Shown here: positions 1 through 36,649 of the stretch, in pieces | Layout: the number at the start of each line of letters is the position of its first letter | Numbering within the stretch: the first letter of the stretch is position 1 | Translations under genes and position numbers: made by a program | Notes under the pieces: generated by a model | The model's database searches: none | What the model was told of the DNA's origin: nothing | Seen by the model: the letters and a program-made list of their open reading frames with translations, nothing else | DNA from: Chara braunii | Lineage: Eukaryota; Plantae; Charophyceae | NCBI GenBank assembly: GCA_003427395.1 | Contig: BFEA01000005.1 | Coordinates: 1,747,823-1,811,497, forward strand | Direction: 5' to 3' | DNA: 63,675 bases

Positions 1-3000
1 ACGGGTTCTCAATGACGAGGCGCCAGATATGGAGTCCCAGACGGCAACACTTACTCACGAGGGGGTACCGCTTATTATCATTGATTGAGGTTCTCTCTTT
101 TCAGTCACTATGATGTATTACGACAATATTATTTATCAGTGACTGCAGCCCTCCGATGGTTGCTCCCTGCATATTTTGTGTACTACTCTTCAGTCTTGTA
201 TCTCTGGTCGTGCTCTTGCAGAGTCTGGTTTCTGGTCTTCTCATTCTGTCAATGTCAATTGCTTTATGATGTATGTATGTTATTTTCCTTCTTATGACAC
301 ACAGGCTACACTCAAGGCAGTTTGAAGCACTCCTGGATGATAGGGACTCCGGTGACCTTGAGTCTAACCTTTATACGGGGTCAGGTGCAGGCGATAAACC
401 CGAACGCCTCACTCTAAGCCGTGTCGCCGCTGGCAGGAGGGATAACCCTGACTACTCGGCTGTATGACTAAGTGTGGCAAAGACTGCCTCTGAATACACC
501 TCTATTTATATACCTATCAAAATCCTGCGTAAGAGCCTGCCAGTCCTCCAACCCACTGAGCTCGGTCCGTGGAAGGATATCTAACCAGACCCTTGAAGCA
601 GTGGGGGCGCGACAGCGGGCCCTAACCGAGACCTTTGAAGGCACTCTCGCCCTCCTCAGAAAATCTTTCGCAATCAAATACACATACGTATATTTGTATA
701 CGTAATATCCACTCAGCTCTTTCTGCAGTCTACTACAGAAAGGCTAGGTCTCCATCTTGGTCCTCCATAGCCTGGCTGATCGGACCAGGACTACGGCCTA
801 CCGCATTGTTATTTCAGCGGCAGTACCCTCGTTGGTTGCGCAACGATAGGTCTTCTCCTGATAAACATTCAATCAGGATTTTCCAAAAACCTCAACCTTC
901 ACTATCCCACGGGGTAATTTCCCTCGGGCGGGCAACTCCCCTTGAACTCTTACTCCGCGGTCCCGTAGCCAGGTTGCGCCGGCTAGCAGCCATCCACTGG
1001 GGTTACGCCCGAGAGGTGCTAATCTTTACCGCTTAGCTTGATATTCCTGTAATATGTACCAGAATTAGCACAAGTGGTTAGACGGAGCGTCGCAAAACTA
1101 ATCACGGGCCCACTGCGAGATTAGGCAGGGGTCTGAAGACATTTACCAGCTCTCCCATAAAAGGCATGACATCCTTCGCACAATCACAAACAAAATCACC
1201 TGCTAGGTCCACGAGGTCGTGACCCTTGACTTGATCAAAGCCAGCAGCCACCCATCTTGAGACATTTTTCGCCCTGCACTCTTTTGCGACTTTCTCAAAT
1301 ATCTCGAGCAAACGTGGCCCCTTTTCGTCAGACTTTATCAACTCTAACACTGCTTACCAGACCCTTAAATCCATCAACCACCTTTCACATGAAGGAGGTC
1401 TCTCTCAATAGGTCTCTCAGCCATCCCTTTCTTCCTAGGATGAGCTATCACACAACCTTTTTTAAAACACCTCTCTTTTTGGGGATGAGTCTTCCGATAA
1501 ATAACATTACCACCTTCCTTAATCTGAAGGGGTCTCAACCATAAAACAACTCAACCATAGAACAACTCAAACTGAGAGGCCTACTTATGGGTCCTCTTCA
1601 CAACTCAACCACGAACCAACTCAACTGAGAGACCTGCTTATGGGCCCTTTTTGCGTTTTAACCATAAAACACCCGGCATAGTAGGTATTTCAGTCTCAAA
1701 GACTCGCAAAAATTCCTTAGGATCCTCACACTTCTGTCACACAACAAACTGCACTACCTCTCCTTATACTTGGCCCTATCACCTGTCCGTAGGCAGATCG
1801 CACGAGTATACCGAAGAGTAGACAACATTCACATTCACACAATCCAATACACATGAGATGTATCCCACACATCTCTCACACAAAACCATTATACATCAGG
1901 ATACAACCACACATGCGAGAGTGATTATGATCGTCATATACAGGGAATAGTCTTACATAAAATCTCAACTCAATATATACATAGGGGTATAATATCCCAA
2001 CTCACCCCAAACAATCATAGTCTTGAATCACATATGTGCACACAGAGTCGAATAATCTCAGCTCAAGTTGGCACCAGTAGTCCAGTATTGCCCAAAAATC
2101 ATAGCCTCCTTAGTCAGAGCTAAACAAGAACAACTCTAAACAGGCGTAATCCGGCTCCTCACATTTGGAGGGATCCAAGTAACCCAAGACCTATCCAAAT
2201 ATCCAACCCAAAACACAAGGTCCATCACGTCTAAATCAATCATAAGCTTACAACAGCCCCGGATCAAAGCGCCGTGCATAATCCTCTCTCATGTCTCACA
2301 CAACCCGTATAGCAAGAGGTTTAACACACTTACTCTCGAGGTCACAGCGCGCTGAAACCATAACTCAGGACCTACTCAATTTAAAGCAGCCTCCTGTATA
2401 CAAACGTACAGACGCTTATCCTTTCCGAACTCAGGGTGGTATGGTTAAAAATAAACTCAGTCCCTAAAACACAGTCAAATCATCTTGTATCGTAAGAAAA
2501 CATCCCTGGACGACGGTATATGTCCCAATGAAGGACAAAGATCACAACCAAATTCAAATCCGCCCTCATAGTAAGATCTCATCCTTACACGACCTCGTGA
2601 GGTGCTCAGGTTTACATTACAGACCATTCCCTCATCTGTTTCTTATCTCCAACGGCCCATATATACACGAGGCTCACTCTCATATTTTACCCAATCTACC
2701 CTTGAGTAGATGCAAAAGCCTGAAAATTTGCTTATCCAATTTAACCTGAGCCCTCTTATGATCTGACATATACACGGAGTGCACTAAATGCTTATATACA
2801 CTTCCTCCAACCCGTTCTGTATATAGTCAAGATCCCGTAAACTAAAACACAGGGTCGGACCCACACAACCAGTTAGCCTTCTACCTCGGCTCCCATGCAC
2901 ACGAATATACACAAGTTCATGAGGGACATACTTCGGCAAAACACAAGGGCATCCTCTATCGCCCTGCTACTGCCCGGACCTCATCCCAATCTACAACCCT

Positions 3001-5270
3001 GTCATTTGGATCGTGGGAGCTTGCATAAGCATCAACGATATTGACCAAGCTCCTCAGTCCTTAGCCATAGGGTACGAATCTTTGGTCCAGATACAGGCCA
3101 TACAACAACTCACACGCGTGCCTTGCATACCTCCCCCTTCTCGCTCCTTCACTACGGCCTCTACCCCAATCTTCCCTTGAGAACCTTCCATCTCGAGCTC
3201 CTTCGACCCCATCACCTGCTTAAGTACACCAAGCGGCGTTAGGGTCGATGCTCGAAGGGAGTTACGCAAATAGATCTAATACAGAATATATCCTACTAAA
3301 TCAAGTCGTTCTCCTCATAAAGGCACATATAAGAATCCATTTAGAACAACGGCATTACCGAAGAGAGTCTCTGAATAAATATCCACCTGAGGTAAAGCAC
3401 AAACACTCACAATAAGTCTCTCAAATCGTAGCTCAGGCATTAACCACTTATGATATCTATTATCAAAGAAGGGCACAATATACATATACCATAGAGGCGG
3501 ATACTCCAAACATGAATCCAAAATGCAATACAACCCATGATAAGTAACATATGCTCATGACAATAATCATAACATAATAACCACAACTTATCGGCAAGGG
3601 TTGTAACTGAAGGGCATGACAAACGTTATACTTAACAACATGAAGCCAACTCAGCTGTCAGTCATATAATAAGATAAACCCCAACAACGTAGGCCATATT
3701 CTATAAGGCAAGAATAAGACTAGCAATGAGTAAATAACATGATACAATTGTTACCCCTCAAACTCTTAAGCGAAGCATTTAGTAAAGAAAGGCGGTGTAA
3801 TCCTTGTAAGATAACATCTTGACTCCTGAGCCCCGCTCTAAAGATCAAGCATCACCGCTTCCCTCTTTGATTCCAGCGCTTGCATCTCATCACCCCTATT
3901 ATGGTCAAGTGGACAACCGCATCCATACTTATCAAGGCAACGAAGAGCGAATTCGCACCCTTACAAATATGGTGACCCTACTTAATGGGAGACGAGTCTA
4001 GGTCGCTACTCCAGATCCGCTCTCACTAAGCAGTAGTTGTTCCACTTGGCCATCATAGTTTCGGTAAGGTAACAAGCCCCTTCCTCTCCTCTCAAATACA
4101 TAATGTAGTTACTCTCCTATCATAGAAAAGTTAACAACACACCACTAATGGACCAGGAATACAATTCCGGCGTGGGTCTCACTACCATCCTTGAAACTGA
4201 TAACTGCTTCCTTAAGCTTCAAAGAGGGAGTAACAATTCAGGAATGCACTTCCACTGAGGACAACCATACACGCTGACTTACTCCCTCGAGGAAGAACCA
4301 CCTTCCCTAGGAGTGAGTCACCCCATTCACCTCTGGTCCCATGCCAGATGTGGGTTTCAGGTAAAATCCATGTCCTCTTTGGGAGACAATCCATATAAGA
4401 ACGATCAACCAGACATCAAACAAAATACAACAAAACACATATATAGCAACAGCCACGTAAGGATCATCCTAAAAACAAATATGTACATATATATATACTT
4501 TAAAACACAAGCTTCTCTTCGGGTTAGCCAAGTTGTTAGCTAGGTAATCACTACTTTTTAATTTTTATCGATAGTAAGCTAGACAATCCTCAGATGGCTC
4601 AACTCATTGTCAATCTCACACCATCGGGGGGCCTAGGTACAACATTCATTGCAATACCAATCGTATCTTAACTCAGACTGATCTAAAGGAAAAACTTTTG
4701 CAACCAAACGTCTCACTTCGCAATCATCAGTCAACCCTTCACCTTGTGTCCCTTATGTATCAGAAACCTCCTCTAAAGCGACACTCTACTGATTAAGGGG
4801 GGGACGCCTCAGCTTAATGTCTTTACATCCCAAAGCAAGCTTATCACCTTTCTCACGTAATAAGTCACTAGCCTCGTAGCTTGGACCGTTATCAACTAAG
4901 CTTGCTTCAGTAGTGGGCATACCCAATAGCGCGGATGCTGCCTTAACTCAACCAAGGCTGCACCAGATATGCGGCGTGTCGCCCGACTATCAAATGATAC
5001 TTCGGATAATCGGGCGCTCACTGAGATCGCTATTATATGCGTCACAGTACGTAAGTGTATAGTCAAACACTTTCTTCCTGAAGTAAACCGTGCGTATGCT
5101 AATAACCACTGCTTCACACTTAGGGCACAGCCTCTAGGGATATCCCCAACGATAATCAAGGCATCACGCAATCGACCATGTACGTCAAAAGAAAACTTCT
5201 TCTTTTGCCTAGTTCTCACTTTCTCTTACCCGGATGTCGTTCCACCAGGGACAACGGTAGGCAGCCGTTA
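1..5270 (-). mobile_element. Long degraded 5' internal/leader region of an LTR retrotransposon, with short ORF remnants of unknown function
   Basis: Lies directly downstream (minus strand) of the PBS at 5271-5288. Contains short broken ORFs (1102-1350, 3315-3533, 4212-4394); no gag or pol motif recognised. Confidence 0.55.
1535..1650. repeat. Short imperfect tandem repeat (CAACTCAACCA.../CTGAGAG(G/A)CCT(A/G)CTTATGGG)
   Basis: Two ~55-bp units plus repeated CAACTCAA sub-units are visible. Confidence 0.7.
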
Positions 5271-5288
5271 TCCCCGGCAACGGCGCCA
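5271..5288 (-). promoter_or_regulatory. Primer-binding site complementary to the tRNA-Asp 3' end
   Basis: Minus strand reads TGGCGCCGTTGCCGGGGA, the PBS known from Athila-type elements, 2 nt after ...CTCGACA. Confidence 0.9.
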
Positions 5289-5290
5289 CC

Positions 5291-7017
5291 TGTCGAGCGC
5301 ATCGGTCCGACACCGCACGTGGCAGCGCGGAACCCTCTCGGTCGCGTCACGCAGGAGTTGGACCAACCTCGACATGAACACGCAAATGGAGCTTCCTTAG
5401 GCCGCTCTGGCCGAGTGCGCCAGCCATACCTCTCGCGAGCCCCTACGACAGGATAGGGTCTCCGTGAGGCAAAACTTACCTTCACCTTACGGGAGTTGTC
5501 ACCTCCCTTCGGTGGGCGTATCCCCTCCGAGCTACCAGTCCACAGTACGAAAGCTGATCAGCTGCAATCGCAGAGGTGGACCAGCCGAGGGCGTTTCTCG
5601 TTCGCTGTAGCATAGGGGGTACGCGCGATAATACGCCTATCGGACCCGCACGCGAACCAGCATCTTGGAGGGCTGAAGTCCCAAGCGTGGTCCGTCGTCG
5701 GTCGGCTAGGACGCATCCCACACACCACGCGCACACCACTTTACGAACACAAAAATAAAACGCACATGCACGCACATACAACACGACACATCACAAACAA
5801 CACAACAACGCTCTTAGTCTCTCGGTAGCCAACCCATAACTTTTCGATGCGAAAGTCAAATAGGCGTCGCGCGCGAGGCTTACTAGTATAAAACTGCTAG
5901 GACGCAGGGTCTACTTATATGGACTAGCAATGCAAACGCACGCAAGCGGTCGCAATGATGGCGTACTATGCAGTACCCATACTCACGCGGTCCTCGTTAA
6001 TCTCGAGAGTCGCGTTCGACACTNAAGTGTCGGCTGACACGCGCCTTGAGGATTAATCTCTCGACGTCGGACAACCGCCATGCGCGGTTGAAGACCACAC
6101 ACCCTTTTCTGCACTCTGTGCAGTGTGGGTGGTACACAGGTCCATACCTGTGGTGGCANTCGTTTTTTACTACCCTGGAGATGAGCCATACTCCAGGCCT
6201 GGGCGGAGGTCAAGGGGTTTGACTTTGACGGCTGCCANGGACTACAACGTCCAACCATACAAACTCCAAAAAACAAAGGATAACAGAGGGTCTTCCTTTT
6301 CTCTCAAGCCATAATCCGGTTAACCCTTACGCATAAATACAGCATGTCTCTCAAATACTCAGNGTACTCGTAAATATATAAGGGTTAATTATATAGGACG
6401 ATCACTTCTCACAGTCACAGTGGGACTCCTCTCAACCACATATGTATGTAATCGCAGGCAATCACATCCAGAGTCCGAACCACAAACGCACCTGCAATCA
6501 CATCAAAGATTCATCCAGAAGTCCGCGCACTACACGGGGTCAACTTCAACCATTCCTTGCACTCACACCCGTCGCTTTAGCCATACAAGCCTCACTCGTG
6601 CAACTCTTAAATAAATACTCAGTACTTTTGTTGGGTGGCCATTCAATAAAGTCCGAGTGAAAACACAACAAAACAGTTCAATCACAAAGCTAAAGCCTTT
6701 AGGTTGAGNGACAGGAGTGAATTGGAGTTGAATCGTAAACCGACGAATCGGCAACCGACCTGTTATCAGCGATAACACAAGATGATCCTCGTAGGATCAA
6801 GCTGAAACTAGTCGAGGTCCTGAATCAAACGATCAAGAGGACCTGTAGCACAAGACATGTCAATCGTCAAGCTAAACCTATAAGCCCGTGGAGAATAATC
6901 CCCATATCACGATCTCACCCAGATCATCCTAATTAACTAAGTCTGAATATACTGTAAGCAGTGCCCAAAGCAAAGGTAGACTCTAGCATAATCTCCCTTA
7001 CACAGGGTGGATCGCCA
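5291..7017 (-). mobile_element. LTR (~1.7 kb) with a PPT upstream and a PBS downstream
   Basis: Minus-strand termini TGGCGA...TCGACA (imperfect inverted repeat). PBS at 5271-5288; purine tract AGGGGGCGA just upstream. Confidence 0.7.
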
Positions 7018-7029
7018 GAATCGCCCCCT
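7018..7029 (-). promoter_or_regulatory. Putative polypurine tract
   Basis: Minus strand AGGGGGCGATTC abuts the TG of the inferred LTR. Confidence 0.55.
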
Positions 7030-7061
7030 GTCAAAATATAATCTATCTCCTTTAAATCAAA

Positions 7062-7340
7062 AAAATTTCGGCAGCGCATCCCGTAGGAAAAGTGTCTTTT
7101 CAGAATCTATATCAGCCCGGATATGAAACCAGAAATAGTCTTTGACTTTCCAAAGTTCAATTTTGTCCAAATCCCTAAATTAGCAAAAATTTGGGTTGCA
7201 CTCCCTTTAAAAAAATGAGACTTTTCAGATTTTTACTAAGTCATCTATAAACTTTAGACAAATTGAACTTTGACAAGTCAAAATTTGACAAACTCCTTGG
7301 ATTTGCAGAAATTTCGGCAGCGCTTCCCGTAGAGAAAGTA
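7062..7340. repeat. Direct repeat AAATTTCGGCAGCGC(A/T)TCCCGTAG (x2) enclosing a ~30-bp inverted repeat
   Basis: Direct copies at ~7063 and ~7309. Inverted arms TTTGACTTTCCAAAGTTCAATTTTGTCCAAA (7141-7171) and TTTAGACAAATTGAACTTTGACAAGTCAAA (7253-7282). Confidence 0.8.
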
Positions 7341-7649
7341 GCTTACCAAGATATTTACAAAGTCAAGTATAATAAAAGATCCCAGAAAATGCGAGAATGA
7401 ATCTAAGAAAAAAACTTAGCTCGGAAAATGCAGGAATTGAATCTAACTCCTATCGCTCTAGCACGTGGCGAGCCTCTAAAGCAACTACCTGTCAAACTGA
7501 AACCCAAACTAAGTAGTAACCTCACTCAGTCACATGCACGTCAAACCACAAAGGTAAGTACTCTCGCTATCCCAAGGTCAATTTAACAAACAATAGTTCA
7601 TAATCTTTCAATGATTTATCCCTTTATACCCTGCTTACATAAGGCGTAA

Positions 7650-8552
7650 AGTCAGACCATCCAATCTTATGGAACATGTGTGACTCAGCCATCAAGTATA
7701 CACGAACAGGTTGCACAACTACTTTTCTCTTCCTTTGGGCACAAGACTAAGCCATTCATCGTAGAAACAATGCTTAGTCGCCCTTAACTATTTAATACCC
7801 AAGTTATATATACCTCTCTGAACTTGGTGTTCAAAAACTGAGCATAGGACTGAGTCATTCATCTTAGAAACAAAGCTCAGTTTGCCCAAAGTTACTTTCA
7901 ATTATATTCTTAGTTATACGCTCTTCAAATTTATGATAAGCTGTAGTCAAACCATCCAATCTTATGGAACCCTTGTCTGACTAACCTGTTCTTAAGTAAG
8001 ATAGTAATAAAATATAGCCAAATTATAACCTTTTGGGTTCCAGCATGTGCGAGGCACTGGGCCAGACCATCCAATCTTATGGAATATGTCTGGTCCTTTG
8101 CCAAGTTCATTCCTCTCTGATGCATCTGTGTGCGGCATGAGTCCAAAGCCATCCAATCTTATGGAACATGCTTTGTCCTCAGCAGAAATTACTCCCTCAG
8201 AATAAACAAACAAAATAGTTGAGCCATTCATCTTAGAAACAATGTTCAACCCCTTTTTCTCAGTAAAAAAAAAGACAGAGTACTCTGAGTTAAACTCGGA
8301 GACTGTTCAGAAACCACCCAGAAATAAACGGCGGCCAGACCATTCATCTTAGAAACAATGTCTGGTCCTCAAAACTCAGGCAATCAATACCCCTCAAAGT
8401 AAGTAGCCAGGTCATTCATCTTAGAAACAATGTCTGACACAACTAAATAAACACAGCGACCAAGTCATTCATCTTAGAAACAATGCTTGGCCCTTCAGAA
8501 AACAAAACAAAACACAGCAGTCAGGCCATTCATCTTAGAAACAATGCCTGAC
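7650..8552. repeat. Array of 11 stem-loops with a conserved core and variable, self-complementary flanks
   Basis: Cores CATTCATCTTAGAAACAAT (7 copies) and CATCCAATCTTATGGAACAT (4 copies), each flanked by a 6-9-bp inverted repeat whose sequence varies between units. Spacers are 19-82 nt. Confidence 0.92.
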
Positions 8553-8949
8553 CCTATAAGACCCATTCAGACACAAGGGAACTCCCTTCATCCCAACCTT
8601 CCCCAGGTGCAATTCCCCTTTTGTTCACAATCTGCCTTCAAGCAATCAGCAAAACTGAAACTGAGATTGCACAAGCATTCTTTTATTTAATCTGGTTCAC
8701 TTCCTGAAAGTCAAACTGAAACTCAAAGTAGGTGGACAAGCAACATACTCAGTCAGATATAGTGACGAATACAAGTAGGGTTTATACTGGGTTTATAGAG
8801 CGAAGCAATGGTTACCTTTCAGTTCCCTGCCTCCAGAACTCCTTCTGAGTTCCGGCAGAGCTCCCGCAATCGGTGGGATGACTCCCCTCAGAGGCTTGCT
8901 GCGGTCCTACAGGTTGTAATCCCGCCTCCCGCCTTCCTCTCAAATCCAA

Positions 8950-10950
8950 CAGACTAGACTTAGAGTAAGAAGGGCAGAAGGAGAAGCTTTGAGACTCTCA
9001 GATCCAAGAGGGGTGCTCTCATACTCACAGGAGAGGGCTTTGTTATCCCGATGCACCTGAGGGCCCCGCAATGGCAGCCAAGGTATACAACAGCTTCGTC
9101 AGAACTGTGGTAAAAACCGCCGAAGTCAACTCTCTGACGACCTTTCAATCTGCAGCAATAACCCCTTCGAAATGCCCAATTATCCCCCTAACTGCCGCAA
9201 CAGCCTGATCAAACGCCGAAGTCAAGCTACCCAAGTTACCCTCTAACGACTCTCTGAATTGCAACGGTAGTCTCCCTTACGCAGCCCCTTTCTTTGTGGT
9301 GCGACCACTCTCCTCTCACTAACCCCTGGTCCCTAAACACGATGCCGCAGCCATATGACCTTCAACCAGCTGCAGTCCGGGCAGCACAGCGGCCTGTAAC
9401 AGGACTCAGCAGCCACTGTAGCAAGCAGCACAGCTGAAAACGAGCAGCAACCGTATGCACGGCCGCAATCGAAAGGTTGGGAGCAGCCTATGACAGTTGA
9501 TTAGCAGCTTACATCGACCCGCGGCATTCGGTTCGCAATACTCAGTCACAACACCTTCCTCAGCTGGCCTAGCAGGTAGAAGTCTTGTGCCCCCGCAGTG
9601 GCAGTTCAATAAGTAACCAGCGAGCATGTCGAACCCCCTTGCCCCGCAGCAGGTGGCAGCCAGCGATCTACTGCAGCAATCACCATGCCCGAGAACAGAG
9701 CGTGATGGGTACAGCCACAATGCCACAACTCATGGCCTACTTCAGTTCGGCCTTTCACACAACTCGGCACCGCAGCTCAGTCTTCAGCCCATCCCACATC
9801 GCTCACTTGGCAGGTAAGTTTGGCCCTCCCTTTTTCCTTTGCAGTCTCCCCTTCACCCTTACCGCCCATCACTCTTCCTCCCCTGCAGCCGACCGTGGTT
9901 GATCCACGGTATACTTCGAGGCAAGTACTTCGTTCATACTCTTCACAGCCTCGCAGGTAGGCCCGCCGATTGCAATTTCGGCCAGGTGAGTCCATCTTTC
10001 CCACTTAAGCACCTCTTACTCCCACCGATCGGCCATGCAAGATCGGAATGACTCCCTCGCAAGCCCATGGAGCTACGCTCCGTTTTCCAATCACGCACGC
10101 AAACGAGGTAGACAACGGCTACCTCCATCTATAGGATGGGGCATAATCGAATGAATCTTCCTCCAGAACGTGGAAAGATACACTCCAACTCCAACTCTCC
10201 CTTCCTCGCAGCACCTACTCCTCCCACGGCTGAAACCAAATGCTAACTTTTAGATCCGACCTTACCGTTGGATTCGCCCGGTTCCAAAGTCTTACTGTAG
10301 AGCTTCTATCCGTCGAAATTGTTCAAGGAACGACCATTTCGACAGTCTTTTGTCTCTTCCTTAGCTCCTTCGCCATAGCTTCACACATGCTTTCTCTCAC
10401 CTAACTCTAAATCTACTAACCCAACTCCAAAACTGACCACAAAATCGGGTTCGCCCGATTCTAAAACCTCAACACCAACTCTTTCCCCGCCCGATTCCAT
10501 CAAGAATCAGGCGGGCTTCACGCTTTCGGTCTCCACTCACTTAAGCCCGAATGCACCTGGCGCGATTTAGCGTCCAGATTCATTCGACTTTCTTTACTAC
10601 CTTGCTGCCCCTACTCTCCCTCACACTTACCCTTACTAACCTCTCCCTATACTTACCTTCTGCTAAAACTAACCCCGGATTCGGATTCGCCCTGCTTCAG
10701 GACCACGAACTCGCATCTTCCCCTGTCTGTTTCCATCGGTAAGTGAGTCAGGCACACATCTTCGACTCTCCGACATAGTTACCTTCACACTACCTCCGCG
10801 CACCTCCTCTACTACTAACCTCTAATCTCACTAACCCTTTACCAAAACTAACTTCATATTCGAAGTCGCCATCCCGCAAAACCTCCGGAACGCCTCCTCC
10901 CTCGCTCTTTCTCATCAAGGGACGGGCGAGCACTCCTCTCTCCCTCGTTG
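8950..10950 (-). pseudogene. Heavily degraded gag-like region with CCHC zinc-knuckle remnants
   Basis: Frameshifted C-x-K-(C)-G-K-M-D-H-L-A-R-N-C at ~9970-10015 and further knuckle-like fragments at ~9045-9080 and ~9160-9200. No pol seen between here and the PPT. Confidence 0.45.
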
Positions 10951-13900
10951 CTCCGCCATTGCCCCCACACACTGGACTTTCTTACTAACACTTTTTCTAT
11001 TGATTCTTTATTAATTCTAACTTCTAAATCGGGGTCGCAATAGGCAAAAACCCCTATCTAACATTTAAAATCACTCGATTTCGTTGGGAATCGAGTAAAC
11101 TATGCAACATTATCTCCGCCACTTCCCTCTTTCCCAACCCCGCCACCTCCTACTCAACTCTCGAATGCACCTGGCGCAGGCCGGCGCCCAGGTTCGTTCG
11201 GCTCCCTTCTCCCTGCTGCGTCCGCCTCTCCGCCTTACCGTGCCAGCGCTCACCGCTCGCTGCCAGCCCCCTCCTTCACTTCTAGCGCTCCACCTCACCC
11301 AGCCCTGCCATACCCCGCATGCACCCGACTCTGTTTTCCGCCCAGGTTCACATTCCTCACTTTGCCCGTTGCCCCCTGCCTGTTTCCTTCCGCCGATGTT
11401 GGCGTCAACATTGGCTCCCAACTGCGCAGCCCGACGGACGGTCGAAATGCCAAGCAAAAGCCCCGGCCGTCGGACCCCCCTCCCGATTTATGCGTATTAC
11501 TCTTACGCAGGGGCCATGCTGATCTTCTCTGCATCGTTCCAATTCTAACAGAAGTCCAGAAGGCCTCGACCTGGGCTGTGGGGTCGATCAGCCCCGGCCC
11601 CCAGTTCCGCCATCTGGGTGCAGACCCAAGTCTGTACTTCAACAGTTCAATGGTGTGCCCACTGAGCAAGGGTCTTGGGTCCCGTACCGCCCGCGGCACT
11701 GCGTCCCAAGGCCAAGCGGGGCACGGCTCTCGCGCAGCCACGAAGACAGTTTGTAATTGCACTTCAGGCAATCCCGCGAATGCAACACACCCCACACGAC
11801 CCTACCGCCGTCTCGCGTCCCAGAAAGGGATGCGACAAAAAAAAAGGACCGAAATTAGTAAAGCAAAGGGAAATAAAGTAAAAATAAAATGAAATAAAGG
11901 TAAGGCCGGGGCACCGCGGCGCCGCTGGCACCTCGCCAGTTCCGCGAATCGGGCCCGCCGCCTCGCTTATTAACAAAACCGAGGGGGATAGCCCAGCGGC
12001 CCTCAACCCCATCGGCTTCCTCCTCAATGCTCCGCTGCTGCTGCTGTGCCGACGCCCGCCAACCTCGACTCCAAAACCTCCGTAGTAGTAGTCCGATGTC
12101 GTAACCTATAGGGCTAAGCCCAAGCCTGAGACTAATATCCGCGGAGTGCCATATAAGACGGTACAGCGCTACGCTCAGGGCCAGGGAAATTGGCCTGAGC
12201 CTCATCTCAGCCTACAACCGCGCGCGCGGCCGCCTAGCGTCTGCGCCGACTTACCAGTTGTACCACGGCCGCCACTCGCGCCACTCCGTGTGCCAAGACC
12301 TACCGTAGTCACACTGTCGCCTTCGTCGCCGCCGTCGAGGTCATCCTTCGTATGCATGCGCAGGTCACCGGTAAACGCACCAATCCGGCCGACGATCATG
12401 CTGGCCACTCGATCATCAACAAATAAAAGGATCACGCACGCCTCAAATCCGCACGCCCACACACTCTTTATTCTAGTCAACCATCAGCCGCATAAACGGC
12501 AGACACTACCGTGACTCGCGCGGTATACTCAAACTTTAAGCCAAACTCATTTTTCTGTCATTTGCAAAAAAACAGGGCGGATACCATTGTAAGGGTATTC
12601 GCGCCGACACCGCTGGGCGGCGAGAAGCGAGGGGTCAACTCATGAGAAGAGGGGCATGAGAAGTGTGAGCATAGAGAGGGAGAAAGAGAGAGAGAGAGAG
12701 AAGGCGGGTGAGAGAGAGAGAGGGAGAGAAAGACTAGCGAAGAAGAGCGAGTGACGTGCAAGCTCCAGGGTAATATTCGTTAACGACTACGTTCTCGGCC
12801 GCTCGGATCGCGGGGGCAGTCTGTCCCACGAGATCGTATACACTCTCTCCAAGGACGAGGTCGCCGACTTCTAAACCTGTGTGATAGTTACGTTCAAGAA
12901 CGAAAGAAGGGAAAGGCTCACGGGTCAGCATTTGTCGACGGAATCTTTGGAAGAGAGATAAGCAATTACAAGGACATGGGTAGGTGCGATGAGGAGAGAA
13001 AGTGAGAGAGAGTACTTGCAGGGGTCAACTGGTCGCCTCCAGAGTGAATGTCGTTTGGTCATCGCAGCCTTTCAGAGTGTGATGACGAGGACTCTGCGTG
13101 AGTGCCTTGTGCTGTCAATGTGTGATTTAGTATGACACCGTGTTATCCATTGTATGCGCGGTGGGTAAGTGTGAAGAGGCCAGCGAAGAGGTGTGTACAC
13201 GAGTGAGTGAGCGGTGCGCATAGGAGAGAGAAGAGAGATTTGCTTGAGGCGCTCCCTCATACTTTTTTTGGTTTGTTGATGTTAACTCACCCATATTGTC
13301 CATGTCATTAGCTTCAGTATATCACCCGTACCTGTCCTCCATTCTTGGGGACATGCGCCACGCGACAACTGACTTTTCGTAGCCCGATCTCCATCGTGGG
13401 TTGAGAAGGTGCTAGTAGAGGACGTCTCCATAACCGAGTCTCAAAGCTAGGTGATGAGAGAGGCTGGCGTGTTCTAAGGAATTGACATTACTAGTGAAGG
13501 GCATGATGGTATGTGTTGGATACAAATGACGGGCTGGACTTGAAAGAAACCAGCCATACGAAAAGGATGACGTAGCCTCCACAATGATTGCGGGATACAG
13601 TGGGCGTTACCTCCCTTCTCCTAGTCGGAACAGGTTCCTTTCTGTACGGAGTGACCGTTGACGTCAGCCTTTCGAGAACGAGCAGGTGATGCAAAGTTCA
13701 AGGCGATGAGCGGCTTCGAGTAATGAGAAAAAACAATCCGTACACGCACGAGCTAGTGACGCGAGATGGGCACTGGAATCACACTTTCTCTGCTGATTAA
13801 ACGACATTAGTTGGGCGTGGGATCACTGTCCCAGGCAGAACTCACGTGTTTCACATAAACGCACAGACCCATATGGGGCAGTCTTTCAATGGAGGAGCCA

Positions 13901-15354
13901 GATACATAGCACTGCATTGATTATGCACGGGGAGGTGTCGAATGATGTTTCGAGCCTTTCAAGTTTTTTTTACGGAGCCAAACTATGGGTTACAACGAGG
14001 CTACCGCCAGTCTGACATAAGAGTAAGCCCGTGAGCCAGATCTCGATCTTGGTTGGGTGTTTGTGGTGAACTATCGGACGAGCAGTTGTAGTGATCCTAT
14101 GCATACTTACCAGTAGACTTGAGTATGGTGGACAGTTGGTAGCAAACTGAGGGAGAGAAGGGTATAAGCGAGTGAGAGTAAGTTTTGAATCTGAAACTGA
14201 AGAGATACTAAGTGAGGTTTAAATTGGCAATTGAGAGCACTCTTCACACGACGTATCGTGTAATAAAAATTGTCAGGACCTAATCGACTCCCTCACCTTG
14301 CGACTGATCAGTTGTCGAGGTGAGGCGTCAAAAGGTTGGCTTTGATAACTTGACATTGTTAGGGCGTCCACAATCGAGTTGGTCGCATAAAAGATCTTCC
14401 TCCACCTTTTCCCTGTTTAATCGTTACGGCTTAACCTCTTGCAGCGAACGACATGAGGGACTGAGAAACTGCAATTTGAGAGGTAACCTTTGGAAGTGGT
14501 TTAACTGCCCTCCATAAAACCGATATGTTGATTAATGGGTAAGCAACAAAAAATCCTTAAGAAGGTTATCTACCCACTGGCTAAGTTTCTCATGGATGAC
14601 TAGTTAACATTTACTGATTCATGAGTTGCGATACTCTGACAAGTCTCTTAGGATCGGACAAGACAGTGCATCGCTTTTCCTTGTAAGACTCTATGACTTG
14701 ATCGGTTGATTGTGAGGCTCAAGTACTCAACTTTCGTTCCCCCTTTTTCTACGCTTGACGAAGTCCCTCAGCCTGCATTCCATTTGTAGACATGAGATGT
14801 TCATGCTTTGTTTGCTAACTAGGGTGTTATCTTGTGGCATTCCCTCCTATGAATGGACGCGAACTATGAATGTTTATCTTGAGTTAAGCCCTGAGTGACA
14901 CAATTCTCCGAAGTGTTGACGTTTGTGTTAATTATGATAAACGTGTGCAATCACAAACTCCTTGTATGGTGGGCTTCCTTTACATGTACACAGGCATAAG
15001 TCCTCAGTGTGTTGGATGACTTCGAGTACTAAGTGAAAAGGGAATCGCTATGGGAGACGTTTGGGAGGCTCCCACCTCTGATCAGCACTCTACCTTGTAT
15101 ACGGATGGCGGCTATGACCAGTAGTGCCCTACGCTGTATACAAGGGTTGCGACCGACGGTTCCTCAAATACAGGGATGCAAAGCCTTTATAGCCCCCTTT
15201 ACTCTTGTGTTTTATTCTATTCTATTACGCGAATGAGGACACTTGTCTGTTGTTCCTAGTATGTTTGCGTGACACCCGGTATTATACTCGAGTGAAGGCA
15301 ACGAGGGGCAGTCGTGAGAGTCATGAGCGAATGACATTCTATGTAGTATAGGAA

Positions 15355-15464
15355 CAACTGTAGGTAATGTCGAGGCTCTAAGTGTTATATACGTAAAATG
15401 GAAGTTCCTCAACTGTAGGTAATGTCGAGGCTCTAAGTGTTATATACGTAAAATTGAAGTTCCT
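15355..15464. repeat. 55-bp tandem duplication
   Basis: CAACTGTAGGTAATGTCGAGG...GAAGTTCCT x2 with 1 mismatch. Confidence 0.95.
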
Positions 15465-16459
15465 CTTTAGCAGACTGTGTGATATGAGTGACGAGCCACG
15501 GACGGTATAACACGCTAAACCAAGACAAAGGTTGCAACGAAAGATGTTTTGTTGTTCTGTACGAGCATGAACGGAGATCGGTAGCTTGTAACATGACTTC
15601 GAATGAGAATGAGGCTTACCATTCTCCTAATCTAGGCGCCATTACTCTTGTCTGTACCTCATGTATTATTTGAACCAAGCTCGCTCACAATATCATCCCA
15701 GGGAGAATTTGTTGCATGCACAGAACTAAGACAGTATATTATCATGGTATAAAGGCCCGCTGATCAGAGATATCCTACATAGCAACCTAGCCAAGAGTTC
15801 GCCCCTCAAACCACTATCGAATTCCTGTTATAGTTCAGCCTATCTGAGCAACCTAAGTGTTACTGATAACAACTGGCCTTACGAAACCTCTATGTAGAAC
15901 ACCCTCAGAACAGAGTATGGCGGTACTTACATGCAGAGTACAGTAGAAAGTATGCAATCTCAGTCGAACTCAAGCAGAGAATTGGCAATAGACTAGGAAA
16001 AAAACAATCTGCCAGAGAATCTAGCAGCAAAGTGGCTGACCAAGAGCTTAGGCATTAACAGACACTTATAACCTCGGTTGTGGATTGTCTGCCACAGTAG
16101 GAGGTCTATTGTGTGTCAGTTTGGGACCGAACGACTGACCTCATGCCTGACAATCCTCTGCACTCTCCTTGTGCCCTGAAGTTCCATAATAGAGGAAGCA
16201 GCCACCCATTTGCTGGAATAAGTTTCGAACTCCACTTCTATTTGCATTTAGCCACAATTTGGGTTGGAATGATGGGGTAACTAAGGTTGGCGCCTGAAAA
16301 TCACTCGATCAGCTTAGAGGAAAAACTAGGTGCGACGGGCTGGGCGGTGAGCCCCTCCAAGAAGCTACACCTTTGTTATACAGAGCGTGCCAGAACCGTT
16401 AATCATTCCTCTGTTCTCCAATCTCTTGGGTTGTCATCCCGAAGGGGACAGGGAAAAAT

Positions 16460-16681
16460 ATGAAGGATGCTGAAGTATTAGTAGTTAAACGCATCATCAA
16501 CCAAAACAAACATGAGGGTTGGGAGGCAAAAGCGATTCGAGGCATGGGACATGGTAAGCCAATTCTGACGAAATGGGCGATTAGTAGGATTGGAGAAAGG
16601 AAATGTACTGGATACGTTTTTCAGTTCCATGATGGTAACGGCAAACTGCACAGCACCGGTTCATCCCTAGAGACGGCGTAG
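16460..16681 (+). CDS. Small LTR-encoded protein (ORF-S), homolog of 50609-50857; likely truncated by a premature stop
   Basis: MKDAEVLVVK..EGW..YVFQFHDGNGKLHSTGSSLET aligns with MKDCEKLVMK..EGW..YVIYFYGTDGKLHNTLSSMET. Confidence 0.75.
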   Translation: MKDAEVLVVKRIINQNKHEGWEAKAIRGMGHGKPILTKWAISRIGERKCTGYVFQFHDGNGKLHSTGSSLETA

Positions 16682-17008
16682 CAGGCCAGGGTCAGGCTTA
16701 AGTGAGTGCAAAGATCCACAAACTTTCTTACCAGCATCCCGGTTAGTAAAACGCCACTAAAAAATCTACAGTTTTCTCAATTCACCATCAAGTGATCAAC
16801 ATTAAGAGATTTATACTTCAACAACTCTTAATCATACGAGTTACCTTAAAGTTTCAGTCAAGATCAATCAGCAATCAGTTACTGCTATTTGACACAGAGG
16901 TCAGTATTAGTCAGATAGTACTTTCACCAAAAGGCACTGAGATTAGTATCAACCGGATTATGTCCTCGTTGGAAGACACAAAACCGGTTTTAGCATCCTA
17001 CTCGACAC

Positions 17009-17241
17009 ATGAGTACAATCCAGTCATTCCCGGTCGACGGTTCAATTTTGACTAGGCTCAACAGGATTGCTTCCAAAATGTCTTCCACTATCGGTATGTT
17101 GGTGTAATTGGTTTCAAGCAAGGAGAACTATTTATCTTTGTAGTTCACACTGAGTTCTCAGAGGGTACCATTCATGATTTAAGAATCTACGTGAAGAAAG
17201 GCAATGAGAAAAGTGATGGCGCCACGTGGATAGTCGCAGCC
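17009..17241 (+). pseudogene. LTR-encoded accessory protein (ORF-X) homolog, frameshifted and truncated
   Basis: MSTIQSFPVDGSILTRLNRIASK / NVFHYRYVGVIGFKQGELFIFVVHTEFSEGTIHDLRIYVKKG..ATWIVAA aligns with 49574-50227. Confidence 0.85.
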
Positions 17242-17559
17242 GACAGCCCCGGCGAAAGAGGGGGTGGCCAGCTCGGAAGGGGACATGTTCCAAGTCAAAA
17301 AAGTCGTGTGTAGAGGGGTCGGTGGGTGGGATGGGGGGTGACGGGGGGGTGACGGGGGGGAGCACGGATCGCCTATGTATCACCCGCGGCCACGGTCGTG
17401 GGGTCCAATGGCCACGGCCACAGATGGCGGCCCCAATTCCGCGACCATGATTTTTACGGATTTTTCTTGGGTGAAATAAAACATTAAAAATATATATCGT
17501 CAAATAGAACTGCCCGGTAAACCGTAGGCAGAGAGGGAGAAGAGGACAACAAACGAGGG

Positions 17560-17921
17560 GTATATATATATATATGGGGTTGTAGGGTTTTTCGAACCCT
17601 ACAACCCCATATTTGTTTTTTCCAAATCGCATTTTCTTGGTTCTAAAAAAAAAAAAATGGAAACTGCAAAAAAAAACAAGGAAAAAAAAAACGAAAAAAA
17701 AATAAATTATTTTTTCTTTTTTTGGGTTGTGTGTGTGTGTGTGTGTGTAAGTTCGTGGGAGAGGGGGGGGGGAGAGACAGGGGAAAATCCCCTTCCACCA
17801 ATCAATCAATCAATCAACCAATCAATAAATCAATCAATCGAAGAAGAAAAAAGTGAAAAAAAGAACATTTTAAAAACGCGGGGAAAAAAAAGTGCTCAAC
17901 AGTAGAGTTGTTTGTGCGCGC

Positions 17922-17952
<31 letters not shown>

Positions 17953-18019
17953 TGTGTGCATGGGGGAGGGGAGGCCACCAATTAATCAATCAATCAATAA
18001 AGTTTTTTTTTTTTTTTTT
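17560..18019. repeat. Low-complexity region with (TG)n, (ATCA)n and homopolymers next to an assembly gap
   Basis: Seen directly; N gap at 18020-18257. Confidence 0.85.
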
Positions 18020-21162: not shown

Positions 21163-22436
21163 TCACTCATGTTTCATGCGCTCCACAAGTGCTTCGTGTA
21201 AGCCCAGCACCCGGGGCCGATTGAAGTTCTCCGCAATGGGGTGGGGTGGGTGATCCATCCCCAAGTCCACTCGCCAGCGCACACCATTTGCATCCACCTC
21301 CCACAACAAGTTGTCATCGAAGTTGATGTCGACATCCAGGAGGATATTGTGCAGAATGCACATGGCTTGTAATTGCTATGGGAGAGTATCCATATCCGTT
21401 TTTTTTGTTTTTTTTTGTGGAGGAAAAACCTCCACATCCCTTTCAGCCTTCCGAAAGCTCTCTCCACCGCTCCTCTGGCGACCTTTTGCCTGTTGTCAAA
21501 CCTCTCCTCATCGACGATTTGATCAGTCCCTTCAAAAGGTAACACGATCCACTCCATGGGAGGATAGTCGTTATCGCCAAGGATGTACCCGTGTGTCTGC
21601 ACCCCGAACAGCCGGAGCACAGCACAACCACGGAAAAGATCCCCCTCTTCAGCGCACTTCTACAGACTGGACAGTTGAAGCACTCGGATATCGTGACAAC
21701 TCTCGGGATAGCCGATGAAAATGCCTGTCACACGCAAGTCCAAGTCCACAAACACCTACGCAACCATCGAAAAACGATGCTTCCGGTTGAAGTAGTTCTC
21801 GGGCGGCATGTTCTTTGAATTGTCCACATAGATGTGCGTGCAGTCTATGCAGCCATAACATTTGGAGACACCTATCGCCTCGAACACACGTAGAACGACG
21901 AGTCGTCGCAACCTAGAAGGGCAAACGATCTTCTCCCAATACACCCTCAAAAGCGCCCTCGTCACATCCTCCATTGAAATCAATCCTGATGCGCGACCTA
22001 TGTCGAATGACAACGTGCTGCTCTCATACGTCTCCCCGCTTGCCCAACGAAAAACACATATGTGATGATGTGATCGGGCATCAAAGGGTCCCTGTAGAAT
22101 GCGCTGCAGATGAGGGGACAACGCCTCGACCATCTCCAGGAACACTCTACAGGACATACGCAGCTTGTCCTTATTGTCGCCCTACGCCATGTCGTCCATC
22201 TTCCGGAGATCATCCCATGTCCCGCCCGTCCTTCTCCTCATCCACCATCTCGGAGTCACCCGCAGGATCGCACCCGATGCCATTGAGCAATAAAATTGCA
22301 CAATCAATTCCGATAATGACACACAACTGGGCGCCTTCATCACTTGTTGCATGAGCTCCCTTTGCCTGCGAATGGACTGTCTCATCTTCGGGCGAGTTGT
22401 CGTTCTCTCAATGTGATAATGAATGGCGACAGTCAC
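21163..22436 (-). pseudogene. PIF/Harbinger (DDE_Tnp_4 / HARBI1-like) transposase, frameshifted
   Basis: Motifs RWASGETY, GCIDCTHI, YFNRK, YILGDNDYP, R..VERAFGRLKGMWR and CILHN spread over several frames. Confidence 0.92.
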
Positions 22437-27074: not shown

Positions 27075-29580
27075 TCGACAACTCGTCGTTTAAAATCGAC
27101 GACACCGTTCTGTTTTGATAATGTTTCGTTATGTTCTCAGCAATTATTTCCCCGTCGGGTATTGGATAATAAAGGCAAAACTGACAGATGTTTTTTTCAG
27201 GCTCTTACAAAATACGGTTACGATGATATAAGACTAACTATTGCAAAATGTTCAGAGGAACCATTTCATTGTTCGTGCGATACTAAAAATTGTCACACAT
27301 CTTATTTCAATGTCGTTCAAAGAAACGGACCAAATCGTTCACTGGACCATATGCGAGAATCATAGCAATTACTTTACAAACTTCTTAAGGCATATAATGT
27401 CCTGCCGCTATCTCGATGCATCGATCGCATGCATGGTCGGTTTGCAAAAGGTCCAATCGAACGCACAAGGATCAGAAATAATCTCATTCGACTCCGTGCA
27501 CCGTACGAATTTCGGAAAAAGAGCGCACCTCACGAGAATGTGCATGGTTTAGCAACACACGCAGATAGAATCATTCCCCTTATGTGATCCTCACATGATG
27601 CAACCGAAAGATTTTTTTCGAAGGGACCACTGTGAAGATCACACTTTCTTTGATTCCACTTCTTATATTTGTTGTCCCACACGAGTATTAACGATCTCTA
27701 CATATAGAGGAAACTCCTGTTTAGGAACATGTCCGTTTAAAGAGTTGTGTTTCATCCACGCCGTCAATTTCGTTTTCGGGGACCCATGTGAAACAACGTC
27801 ATGCTCAGTGTCAAGTTCGAATTGCATTTTTTACACGTTTTCGATGTGCACAGACAATCTTTCGACCATGGGCGACTATTATTGCACTAGGTCGAACTCA
27901 AATAGATGCTAGCATGCTTCGCATGCACCTACAACACGCACAGCTTGATACGATTTGACTTCATCGATGAGCACATTACTATTTTGTTTGCAAACCATAG
28001 CACAATCACGCCCTTTGTATACGTACTTATACACGTACGTGCACGCCTTGATGTTAGCACAATATTCAACATTCAAGTGACAATTAAACCTCATCAGCAA
28101 GTATGGGTTATACGAGACCACACGACGATTATATTAAATGATATTATTTTGAACAGTCGTAAAACCACTGTCACTTGGTTCCTTTCTCCTATACGAAGGG
28201 TACGTTTGTTCGTCTTTGAATGAAGTATTTTGGCAACCCTTTTGTCAATTCTTTGTCCCCCGTGCACGAAGCCTGACGTTTCTCCGCACCACAAATCGCG
28301 TGCAACATGAATTTGACAACCCTTTCTCTCAATTCCCCTTCCGGAGGAATCTCGACACACACCACATTGTCAACAACATCCGCATCGCGAAGTTTATCAT
28401 CCGGATACAAGATAACTAACATATGTGCGTGTGATAGACCTCTTTTTTTAAACTCCATAACATACAACATTTCATTCACCCTACCAAAGATCCGTTTGTT
28501 TTTTATCTCATCGATGAGTTGTGCAAGATAACCTTTTAACACTCTCGCGAGAAGATTCGGTCTGTCGTTAGAACATTGACCTGGCAACAGTGCTTGTTTG
28601 ATATCCGACCAGTTAGTGTTGCACGTCATAGTGATGAAAAGATCCAGTTTTCCGTATCGCTCACGATTGTCATGTTGTCGTGATATCTTTCACTCATTTA
28701 TCGGGGCACCCCAGTGAACGTTAACGGTAAAACCACATTTGTCCCAACACCGTCACCACGTTGATTTTGTTCCATGGCATCTCGTAGATCCTGATAATAC
28801 TCCGACCAGAAATCTTTCTGATGGAATCTCACCTATTTTAAGCGAAGGGATTCGACCTTAACGTACGCCATATCACAAAAGTAGTGGAAAAGATGTGCTA
28901 CATAACGGAGGCAAGGTCTTTCACCATCGCGTTCGTGAAGGTGAAATGCATAGTACTTCTCGGCACTGAGTCCCGACGGCCATCGAGCTTCCAAGGCACG
29001 CCAAGCAGACCAACTATCAATTTCCTCCGGGAAAAGCAAAACAAACCTCAAGCAATCATGCGTTCGGAAACATTCTGGAATCACAATTGTTTGTCACCCA
29101 CCCGAAAGAGGAGCACGCAAATGAATCTCGAGCTCACGAGGAAGAAGGTCATCCGCCATGAGAACGCACACCTCCTGCAGACCTGTGGGACGGTTGTAAC
29201 GCCTTGCATGTTCCTCCGCGGCATGACATCTGGATTTATGACCAACTTCCTCCCGTTTAACGCTTCCGGCGGAAGGTCAGCAATCGTCATAAAGTCTCTC
29301 ACGTAATTGTTACAACGTTCTAGCAATTCGTGGAACCTTCTCAATATCTGTCTAATTCGCTCCAGTTCGGCATTAGACATATCCGTAGGTAAATTAAAAA
29401 AATATACTCTTTGATGAATCGCATCATCCAAATGTTGACCATCGTGCAAGTAAAGTTGCGCAAACATAGGACATTCCTCTTCCTCCACAGCGAATGCAAC
29501 AACACAATGATAAATTGGACCCTGAATCCAAAATTGACCCTAGAATTATGAGCATCATCGCTCCGTTGCTTTAATCGCAA
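27075..29580 (-). pseudogene. Helitron Rep (HUH endonuclease) region, frameshifted
   Basis: FAQLY, TCNTNWSDI..DRPNLLAR, EFKKRGLSHAHML, VSYNPYLLMRFNCHLNVEYC..YVYKYVYKG. Confidence 0.92.
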
Positions 29581-30445: not shown

Positions 30446-31443
30446 TGTTAGGCCTGGACCAAGCACCCAGGATTTAAGGTCAGTCAGACCCTATGTATGG
30501 GCCCAGGTCTAGGTGTAAAAAAAACAAAAACAAAAACAAAACAGCAAGAAAAAGGCTTCGGGCCTACTCTGGGCCTATGCCTAGGTCGAGGTCTGGGCTT
30601 TGAGAACAGGCCCGTGGCGTCGACCTTACTAAACCTGATAAGAGAGAGTGAGAGAGAGTTGGCGAACGGGGCACTATCTGCATCATCGCCACATCAGCAT
30701 CGCCAGATCACCATACTGCTACACGCCACGTTAGTGCGGACAATGATTGGTCATGTCAGTGTCGCAACTCGTGCGTGGACAACGATTGGCCACGTAAGCG
30801 CGGACAGAGAGAGAAACAAAGAGAGAGAGAGATGGATAGATGGATAGAGAGAGAAAGGGAATGAGAGAGAGAGAGTAGTCTTCTTCTTCTTCTTCTTCTT
30901 CTTCCTCCAGCGCGAGCACGTGCGCACACACGGAGAGCGCGAGTGCTCGTGCACGCGCGCTGTCGCACTTTTTCCAGTCGGGCCTCTTCAAGCGACCAGA
31001 AAGCCAACAAGCTGTCACGCAGGATTTTGTATGTCGATTTTAATAAATAAAATAAAATAAATTAAATAATGTCAATCCCTTCCTGTTGTGTGGGTCCGGC
31101 TTCGAGCGAGACCCTTCAATTATGGTTTTCGCCGGTCCCCCGTCTTAGGAATCTTTTATTTTGATTCGGAACAACAAAGAATTATATGATAGTCATAAAA
31201 TCTTGGTGTGTCATGCATGCATCAATTTTGCCGATTTTCTACTTTTGAGAACCGTGACAGAATCATCAAAGAATGCAAGCATCAAGCAAACGACAATGCA
31301 AGAAGTCGGACTGACTGACTCGAGCAAAGACAAGGTCAAGTGAGGGAAGAATGAGAACTCATAATAATCTCAGAAAGTATACATGTAAGGAGCATGGCCA
31401 ACACCAGTCAAAAGTCCTCATTCGTCCCTCGAAATCCTCACAC

Positions 31444-31992
31444 TCAATCTCTCATTTTGTTGTCTGTTGTCTGGACTCCCTGCCATGTCTTGGTACTCTC
31501 TGAGGTTGTGGTCTCTGTATGTAGAGCCATCTGAAGCCTACGAGCTCCGAGCACTTCCATCAAAGTCTCATGATATAAAAATCAACCATGGCACAAAACT
31601 CCTCCTATAATGTAGGGAACTACGGTTGACAGAAGATCCCTTGTCTGAGATGTGGGAACTCGGAAGGCTCGGTCACAGCTGCTGGCGAAATGTACCTCTT
31701 TGCCAGATCTACCAGGTCATCCCAATTAGAGCCATCTGTGAGAGTAAAAGAAACTGGAGGCTTTGGGTAATCAGTGTAGAGCTTGGGTCCGAAGCTACGG
31801 ATTAGCTTCACTCCGTTCTCATCTAGCTCTTTCTCTCTTTCTTTAAGGTACCTGGTTGCTGCAATCCAAACTGAATCGAAGTGCTCATGGGTTTCTTCAA
31901 GGTACCTGGTTGCTGCACTTCAGCTTGAGTGCGATCTGGTTGAGATTCGTCAAGACTGACCCGTGAACTGAAAATGATTGAACTGCACTCAC
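31444..31992 (-). pseudogene. ORF-X copy in the 3' LTR, with an internal deletion and frameshifts
   Basis: Colinear with 49574-50227 (e.g. SFGPKLYTDYPKPPVSFTLTDGSNW); lacks the segment equivalent to ~50032-50159. Confidence 0.85.
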
Positions 31993-34900: not shown

Positions 34901-35761
34901 GATACAAGTAGCAATCTACAAAAAACATCATTAGCTCTGCTCACACAATCGCTTACCACGCTTCTATCAGCCTACTCTTACTTCGTATCGTTGTACTCGA
35001 TGGACAATAGTGCTCCTTCTGATCACAAGTTGGCTGCACGAGATCCGTAAAACAGGGAAAACTCCCCGCCTGTTCACTCGAAGAGGCAATAATGGTCAAA
35101 GCGAGCCCTTACACGAGCATTCGTGCCCTGAATATAAAAGCGTATGATAGGTGATGACCGCAAACATTGTCTAGGACGTCAGCAAGGCCAAACTAGAGCC
35201 AGTTATCGCGTCTCTTCCTCGCTCCTTATCGAACTGATTAGTCTCCCTAGTCTCTCTGCCATGTGCACCTCGACCAATGAAGGGAGTAACACCATGTCCC
35301 GTTAGCCACTTACTGCCACTTACTGACTAGCTGGGACACACGATCAGGCCTTCCCTACTCAAGGAAGAGAGTCGAGCGTTAGCTGACGGCGATGCAATGG
35401 AACCCCTCGGCACGCGGCACCAGTCCGATGTGTGAGGGCAACAAGTAATGAGGAGAGTCCCGTTCTCTCTCCTGTGCCCGATCCCCTTATCTCTCTCTCT
35501 CCCCCGTTCACTCGGTCGTCTTTCCACATTCACAACAACTAGCCACTCGCCAGTCCAGTCCCGCACGACTACAAGGAACTCTAGAAGAGATTCATCCCCT
35601 GACCAAACCCATATTGAAGACATTGTGCTTAGCCAGAGAAGACGTGTACACATTCAAATTCTCGCCATGACTAGAGGAGTCAAGAGTGGGGATCTCCCTC
35701 CCGAGACACCCACTTCACAGTCCCGCTTGAGGCCGTAATGGTATGTCTGCCTATCGCCTCA

Positions 35762-36025
35762 AGCTGGCCTCTGGGCCTTCTTCCACTAGTCATGCCTGCG
35801 CGTGACTTCCCCCTCGTAACTGCCTTAACACACTTTGACCTTCTCTCTCGTCTAGCGGCTCCAGTCTCTTCGCCGTCTGGAGTTGGGCTCTGGGCCTTCT
35901 TCCACTAGTCCTGCATGCGCGTGACTTCCCCCTCGTAACTGCCTTAACGCGCTTTGACCTTCTCTCTCGTCTTGCGGCTCCAGTGTCTTCGCCGTCTCGA
36001 GTTGGCCTCTGGGCCACTTTCCACT
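35762..36025. repeat. ~120-bp tandem repeat (2+ copies) in the LTR
   Basis: CTCTGGGCC(T/A)(T/C)(C/T)TTCCACT recurs at ~35769, ~35888 and ~36007. Confidence 0.9.
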
Positions 36026-36629: not shown

Positions 36630-36649
36630 TCATTACTACCCCGAACTAA
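36630..36649 (-). promoter_or_regulatory. Putative polypurine tract
   Basis: TTTAGTTCGGGGTAGTAATGA immediately before TGTTATAAC; equivalent site at 53758-53777. Confidence 0.5.

Follow-up and report, generated by a model that had tools for sequence, protein, structure and literature searches.

An Array of Eleven Fixed-Loop Hairpins Under Structural Selection in a Likely LTR-Type Element of Chara braunii

An array of 11 hairpin units is present at positions 7650–8552 of the 63,675-nt stretch of Chara braunii DNA that was analysed in full (hereafter the window). The array is real and structure-selected, and it is a structure-conserved member of the repeat arrays of retrotransposons. All 11 units share one orientation, start (at the CA) at 7658, 7753, 7856, 7953, 8068, 8150, 8225, 8341, 8413, 8466, and 8527, and are spaced 53–116 bp start to start. 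Each consists of an outer stem of 6–8 bp and an inner stem of 2–4 bp, with a fixed core of 19–22 nt, and an asymmetric bulge as well as an internal loop is kept in 11 of 11 units. Neither core matching nor a covariance model finds a unit elsewhere in the window. The model, which was built from the 11 units as the first-pass annotation had proposed, separates them (39–55 bits, by construction) from the next window site at 16 bits.

Two core types occur, type A (TTC-ATCTTA-GAA), with seven matches against 0.08 expected window-wide, and type B (TCCA-ATCTTA-TGGA), with four matches against 0.06. Type A cores are near-identical, with two differences in 7 × 19 (133) positions. The type B units are unit 1 (7650–7685; stem AGTCAGAC/GTGTGACT with one G-G mismatch), unit 4 (7945–7982; 3′ internal-loop strand longer), unit 5 (8060–8095; same stem as unit 8), and unit 6 (8144–8175). 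The type A units are unit 2 (7745–7779; loop variant ATCGTA, perfect 8-bp stem), unit 3 (7849–7881; ACAAA variant), unit 7 (8218–8250), unit 8 (8333–8367), unit 9 (8406–8438; the weakest stem, Watson-Crick at 4 of 7 positions), unit 10 (8459–8491), and unit 11 (8520–8552; perfect 7-bp stem). No strand is assigned to the units. The eleven-hairpin array with a near-invariant loop described in the first-pass annotation was thus confirmed, with the core types it stated. The outer stems it listed are complementary, but the list left out unit 9 and the G-G mismatch of unit 1, and the co-variation it saw in the inner stem amounts to a single switch between the two core types.

The spacers (18–81 nt) are G-poor, have no matches to the rest of the window, and are unrelated in sequence, with 2 of 45 pairs alike at p<0.02, in agreement with the drift reported for them originally. 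The array originated through tandem duplication, and the segments 8322–8438 and 8445–8552 still match at 73%; Tandem Repeats Finder does not detect the array. A MITE at each unit, an origin that the original annotation had named as one that would refute it, was rejected, as no unit (0/11) is flanked by a direct repeat of at least 3 nt and per-unit target-site duplications are absent.

The stems stay paired while their sequence drifts, which supports selection on structure. The 77 cells of the outer 7-bp stems comprise 65 Watson-Crick pairs, 7 G-T, 3 A-C, and 2 other combinations. Arms joined with their own partners give these 65 Watson-Crick pairs versus 42.3 ± 5.1 with partners permuted, a count equalled in 1 of 200,000 permutations. 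Both-sided change is found in 7 of 8 stem columns, the covariation score was reached by 0 of 500 shuffles, and pairing is 90% in the true register versus 23–39% in slid registers. Because decay can mimic compensation, and because the permutation, shuffle, and slid-register controls ignore unit relatedness, we simulated neutral duplication trees in 18,000 runs under three models, including transitions only and deamination bias. Stem positions 2–7 have kept 57 of 66 Watson-Crick pairs despite 52% arm difference, whereas the 11,971 neutral runs with comparable arm difference have means of 20–33 and a maximum of 50. As none of these matched runs reaches 57 pairs (0/11,971), plain decay was rejected as the source of the covariation, and the earlier claim that the structure appears to be under selection, rather than a product of mere tandem duplication, is supported.

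The simulation covered plain duplication and decay, and template switching could yield compensatory changes without selection. The array could in that case be a neutral tandem repeat in which template switching, at replication or at reverse transcription, preserves arm complementarity and gene conversion homogenises the cores. Such an origin would suit the visible duplication, the stem shared by units 5 and 8 on different core types (a sign of inter-unit exchange), and the commonness of tandem arrays in such regions (PMC11963269, in its available part). However, template switching should also remove the asymmetric bulge and the internal loop, both of which persist in all 11 units, and the cores are nearly invariant yet the spacers unrelated. 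With plain decay also excluded, we consider a neutral repeat quite unlikely.

Both strands of the array fold more stably than shuffled sequences (z −6.2 and −5.8), with similar consensus energies (−9.2 and −9.0). As RNA, the fold energy per unit averages −10 to −13 kcal/mol, while as DNA the units fold weakly, at about −5 kcal/mol. The latter value argues against action at the DNA level, either as hairpins in single-stranded replication DNA or as palindromic sites in a long-LTR promoter similar to that of Sireviruses. Mismatches are symmetric between the strands, and past the last unit there is a TATA-like sequence (7623–7628, minus strand) with an LTR-end/PBS-like junction ~600 nt further, both of which are in line with a DNA element. 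Double-stranded sites, however, require fixed sequence rather than co-varying arms, a second copy of such an LTR is absent from the window, and Sirevirus palindromes, as described in the available text of PMC4728375, conserve arms over centre. We therefore regard a DNA-level role as very unlikely.

Folding energies thus favour neither strand. The lean of G-U pairs toward the plus strand noted in the first-pass annotation is 7:3 (p=0.17), and three of the seven plus-strand G-U pairs are closing pairs, whose invariant G has an invariant C as an alternative partner. This alternative register, with a one-base bulge, is also 90% paired and has G-U pairs at 4:3. Since the lean falls to 4:3 in an equally good register, it is too fragile to serve as strand evidence. 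Type A units have two competing pairing registers. On the plus strand, the motif ACAAU*AU occurs in 6 of 7 type A units and 0 of 4 type B units; on the minus strand, the unit has what we take to be a resemblance to a TAR-type bulge and hexaloop. In its G-richness the minus strand resembles the sense strand of the neighbouring Ty3 element; this and a PBS-like junction (below) slightly favour it as the sense strand of the array's own element, although plus-strand RNA predominates in one run (X7, below). Alternatively, the element could have a Retand-like layout on the plus strand, in which the adjacent broken frame would be an antisense accessory gene and 12588 the start of a 3′ LTR.

The host element is likely of the LTR type, a class that we assign from LTR/PBS-like junctions and from the neighbouring elements. 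Its description as an LTR-element 3′ region is plausible from these junctions, but gag, RT, and integrase domains and a second LTR were not found. No Pfam family was detected in the scanned frames (minus strand, 700–6000 and 8560–12600; plus strand, 1–6000 and 6710–12600; X at stops), and a non-autonomous or decayed element would be compatible with the missing gag and pol domains. A direct LTR pair was not found in 1–18000, where the region is nested and old, and LTR-like ends occur only singly, at 12588, 7031, and 5291. One LTR-end and PBS-like junction (TTACA A TGGTATCC) is located at 12570–12600 on the minus strand, although it can alternatively be read as a purine tract and LTR start on the plus strand. 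Directly after TTACA, at 12586, TGGTATCC presumably represents a 7-nt likeness to a Met-type primer-binding site. We take 5270–5288 to be a full Asp-type primer-binding site, which probably belongs to a nested element. A tRNA scan returned no hits.

On one side, the array is bordered by a conserved non-coding high-copy flank (6710–7640; no strand assigned) that contains perfect 7-bp hairpins at 6761–6777 and 6783–6799, a ~246-bp duplication (7030–7093 / 7277–7339), and a decayed minus-strand LTR-end/PBS-like junction near 7015–7035. Clusters of short perfect hairpins are found at 6740–6845 and 6017–6197, and the block 6710–6836 is among the deepest of the family in the sequencing runs. On the other side, one or more broken reading frames (8816–10184, minus strand) have no Pfam or database relative, in searches whose sensitivity is low since the frame is broken; within them, 8820–9120 occurs at high copy number and is transcribed from the minus strand. 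Protein searches with the upstream frames likewise found no relative. For an antisense ORF of the TRP28 type (PF04195), there is no Pfam match on either strand, again with sensitivity lowered by the broken frame.

Several other features were observed further along this side. A 44-nt block at 10141–10184, within an otherwise low-copy stretch, is deeply covered on both strands by DNA and RNA runs alike, and its flanks vary. A degenerate ~200-bp repeat in about four copies, with TACTAAC motifs, occupies 10390–11240 and includes a 7-bp hairpin capped by TTCG (10443–10460, plus strand). At 16460–17208 (plus strand) there is a broken frame without a Pfam match, related to an unnamed frame of the Ty3 elements, close to their 3′ end (50027–50857, minus strand).

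Ty3/gypsy gag, protease, RT, RNase H, and integrase domains are found at 40–46 kb and 57–62 kb of the window. An 18.4-kb Ty3/gypsy element (30961–49390, minus strand) has LTRs of ~300 bp (30961–31260 and 49091–49390; 91% alike), one frame before gag, and 9 kb of sequence past integrase, and presumably carries an Asp-type PBS. A second Ty3/gypsy copy (49391–62573, minus strand) follows in tandem, with one LTR common to both. Past pol, at 38532–39331 and 55719–56520, is the Ty3/gypsy element's own five-copy hairpin motif, with GAC/GTC stems and a 9-nt loop, which folds better on the element's sense strand; other short repeat families are also present. A single hairpin ~180 nt past the integrase frame (40079–40119, plus strand) weakly resembles the array unit (16 bits, E 0.075). 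The window also contains a DDE_Tnp_4 transposase fragment (21177–21659, minus strand) and a Helitron helicase-like fragment (28192–28689, minus strand).

The array region belongs to a dispersed high-copy family. We compared reads and contigs over 6710–10500 (3.8 kb), on which 37,244 contigs of DNA run X1 were placed; the contig identical to the present copy has a depth of 11. Array bins in X1 sum to 12,600–35,800 and flanks to >100,000 (sums, not copy numbers). Joints in X1 at 7645>8519, 7732>8337, 8249>8445, and 8258>8410 omit whole units, so unit number differs between family copies. Over the same 6710–10500 interval, X1 shows 912 unphased differences, of which 40 are listed.

A splice-donor-like site (8808–8820, minus strand; AG|GTAA at 8815) is located 260 nt upstream of the array, and coverage in the poly(A) run X6 ends about here, which identifies it as a putative donor. 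Across 8742–8995, X6 depth is 32–33 in the minus-strand-RNA orientation versus about 1 in the other, falling from 85 reads at 8844 to 4 at 8802 and 0 at 8781, and depth over the array is 0–2.2. The DNA depth of the 7091–7725 flank, in contrast, reaches the level of the exon. These observations suggest that a spliced minus-strand message departs before the array and that the array stays mainly in unspliced RNA. DNA likeness also drops at the donor-like site, so the X6 drop may reflect subfamilies with the exon but without the array. In the index of sequencing runs, the only RNA holder listed is X5, with a small share; past the donor-like site, X5 contigs continue into sequence that matches nothing in the window.

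In run X7, reads extend over the entire region with a profile that resembles that of DNA. Within 7599–8614, X7 has ~2.7 times more plus-RNA reads and X6 ~6 times more of the opposite orientation, at a depth near 1–2 (bin sums; strandedness assumed). Family RNA covers the array and, with library strandedness assumed, both strands are transcribed; most RNA reads are <95% alike and therefore derive from other copies. Transcription of both strands, the covariation, which applies equally, and the location of the array 260 nt behind the site where poly(A) coverage ends are also consistent with some other structured RNA control, which might decide whether the downstream intron is spliced or retained, affect RNA stability, or help the RNA escape silencing, and might act on an antisense RNA. 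However, no spliced joint across the array is present among the 15 listed of 535 joints, and splice control rarely requires 11 copies of a fixed loop. On balance, control of this kind seems unlikely.

The processed small-RNA array suggested in the first-pass annotation, with hairpins as cut sites or precursors, resembles our array in outline, both having fixed repeats and unrelated spacers. It is nevertheless a poor fit and highly improbable. The stems are short (6–8 bp plus 2–4 bp), and the arms vary while the loops are fixed, the reverse of the pattern in microRNA precursors. The G-poor spacers, 18–81 nt long, match nothing else in the window, and there is no Rfam match at gathering level. 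Sites with many molecule starts or ends are also lacking in the long-RNA runs, in which small RNAs are invisible.

Database comparisons did not assign the array to a known family. In Rfam, a search that had been proposed with the original annotation, no family comes near its gathering threshold, the best over the array being SNORD34 (20.4 bits versus 38, E 2.2). Phage records contain no match to the array, and viral contigs contain two single type A core matches, each without an array, and no type B match. A set of 27 metagenome loci with two adjacent cores was rejected as unrelated repeats, none being BLAST-similar to window 1–18000 or reaching more than 15 bits with the covariance model. Hammerhead, K-turn, box C/D, and Pol III promoter candidates were dropped, as required motifs are missing on one strand (judged by eye against their consensus sequences). 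A literature search, its scope short of most subscription journals, found no report of such an array among the papers listed.

The closest parallels are with other repeat arrays and with viral packaging signals. In Retand elements, the stretch from pol to the 3′ LTR often holds tandem arrays of 8–100-bp units that vary in number, have no known function, and lie beside antisense ORFs (PMC11963269; PMC7264820, each in its available part). Our array is similar in its non-coding internal location beside an accessory-type frame, its unit size (53–116 bp, near 8–100 bp), and its copy-variable number. It differs in being conserved as structure, whereas the Retand arrays are sequence repeats from Tandem Repeats Finder for which the available part of PMC11963269 claims no structure; moreover, no RT or TRP28 domain was found in the host element here. 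The packaging signals of STNV, as presented in the available text of PMC5699041, are many AXXA stem-loops with a common loop motif. Loops that stay fixed on free stems, between unrelated spacers, are characteristic of RNA signals read at the loop, as in STNV. Shared features are the many short stem-loops, the common loop motif, the free stems, and plausibly cooperative binding. Unlike those of STNV, the present hairpins are clustered in 0.9 kb, have a fixed core of 19–22 nt, and reside in a retroelement.

Sirevirus LTRs have palindromes in which conservation is higher in the arms than in the centre; these, too, are hairpin units repeated within non-coding sequence of an LTR retrotransposon, and units are gained and lost (PMC4728375, available text). 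They belong to the LTR promoter part of Ty1/copia elements and are GC-rich, and they differ from our array, in which loops are fixed and arms co-vary. Among 16S helix-15 C-loops, the motif ACAAU*AU is the most frequent variant (PMC4551918 Table 12, in the part available), and 6 of 7 type A units match it exactly on the plus strand (compared with available portions of PMC4551918, PMC2952876, and PMC2441787). Unlike the rRNA C-loop, type B units (4/11) lack the required base, and a 7-nt match can arise by chance.

The combination of fixed cores, free but paired stems, unrelated linkers, and variable unit number has the look of a repeated RNA docking site. Our preferred reading, to which we tentatively give slightly less than even probability, is that the hairpins form a multivalent protein-binding array that would mark full-length element RNA for packaging or export. 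Each unit would dock one copy of a protein at its short, bulged helix and its hexaloop; the protein could be Gag, an accessory protein of the element supplied in trans, or a host factor. The outer stem would serve only as scaffold, and avidity would rise with unit number. Because the spliced minus-strand message appears to leave at the upstream donor, the array would be retained mainly in full-length RNA, the form in which a signal for packaging or export would be of use. In barley BARE, a spliced gag message exists beside an unspliced packaged RNA, and a parasitic subfamily is packaged in trans (PMC3735527, in its available part). The multivalent platform first put forward for this locus is thus the best reading of the array, but its partner and its role are conjectural.

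To our knowledge, few signals for packaging or export have been mapped in plant-type LTR elements. Internal non-coding repeat arrays are common in plant LTR retrotransposons, and PMC11963269, in its available part, gives them no known function; the proposed docking role would give such a repeat a testable job. The array also provides an experimental handle, as loop mutants should abolish function and compensatory stem swaps should not, and a compact hairpin–protein pair could serve as an RNA tag. The fixed core and RNA-type structure point to a recognised signal in at least one array of this sort. Retroelements may even have evolved an MS2-like tag, a tandem docking array of tunable copy number, present only in unspliced RNA, by which a gene-poor, high-copy element gathers many copies of one protein so as to win packaging or export, although we find this rather doubtful. 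If it is true, RNA platforms with a loop code per family would form a general class among the little-understood arrays that plant Ty3/gypsy elements carry.
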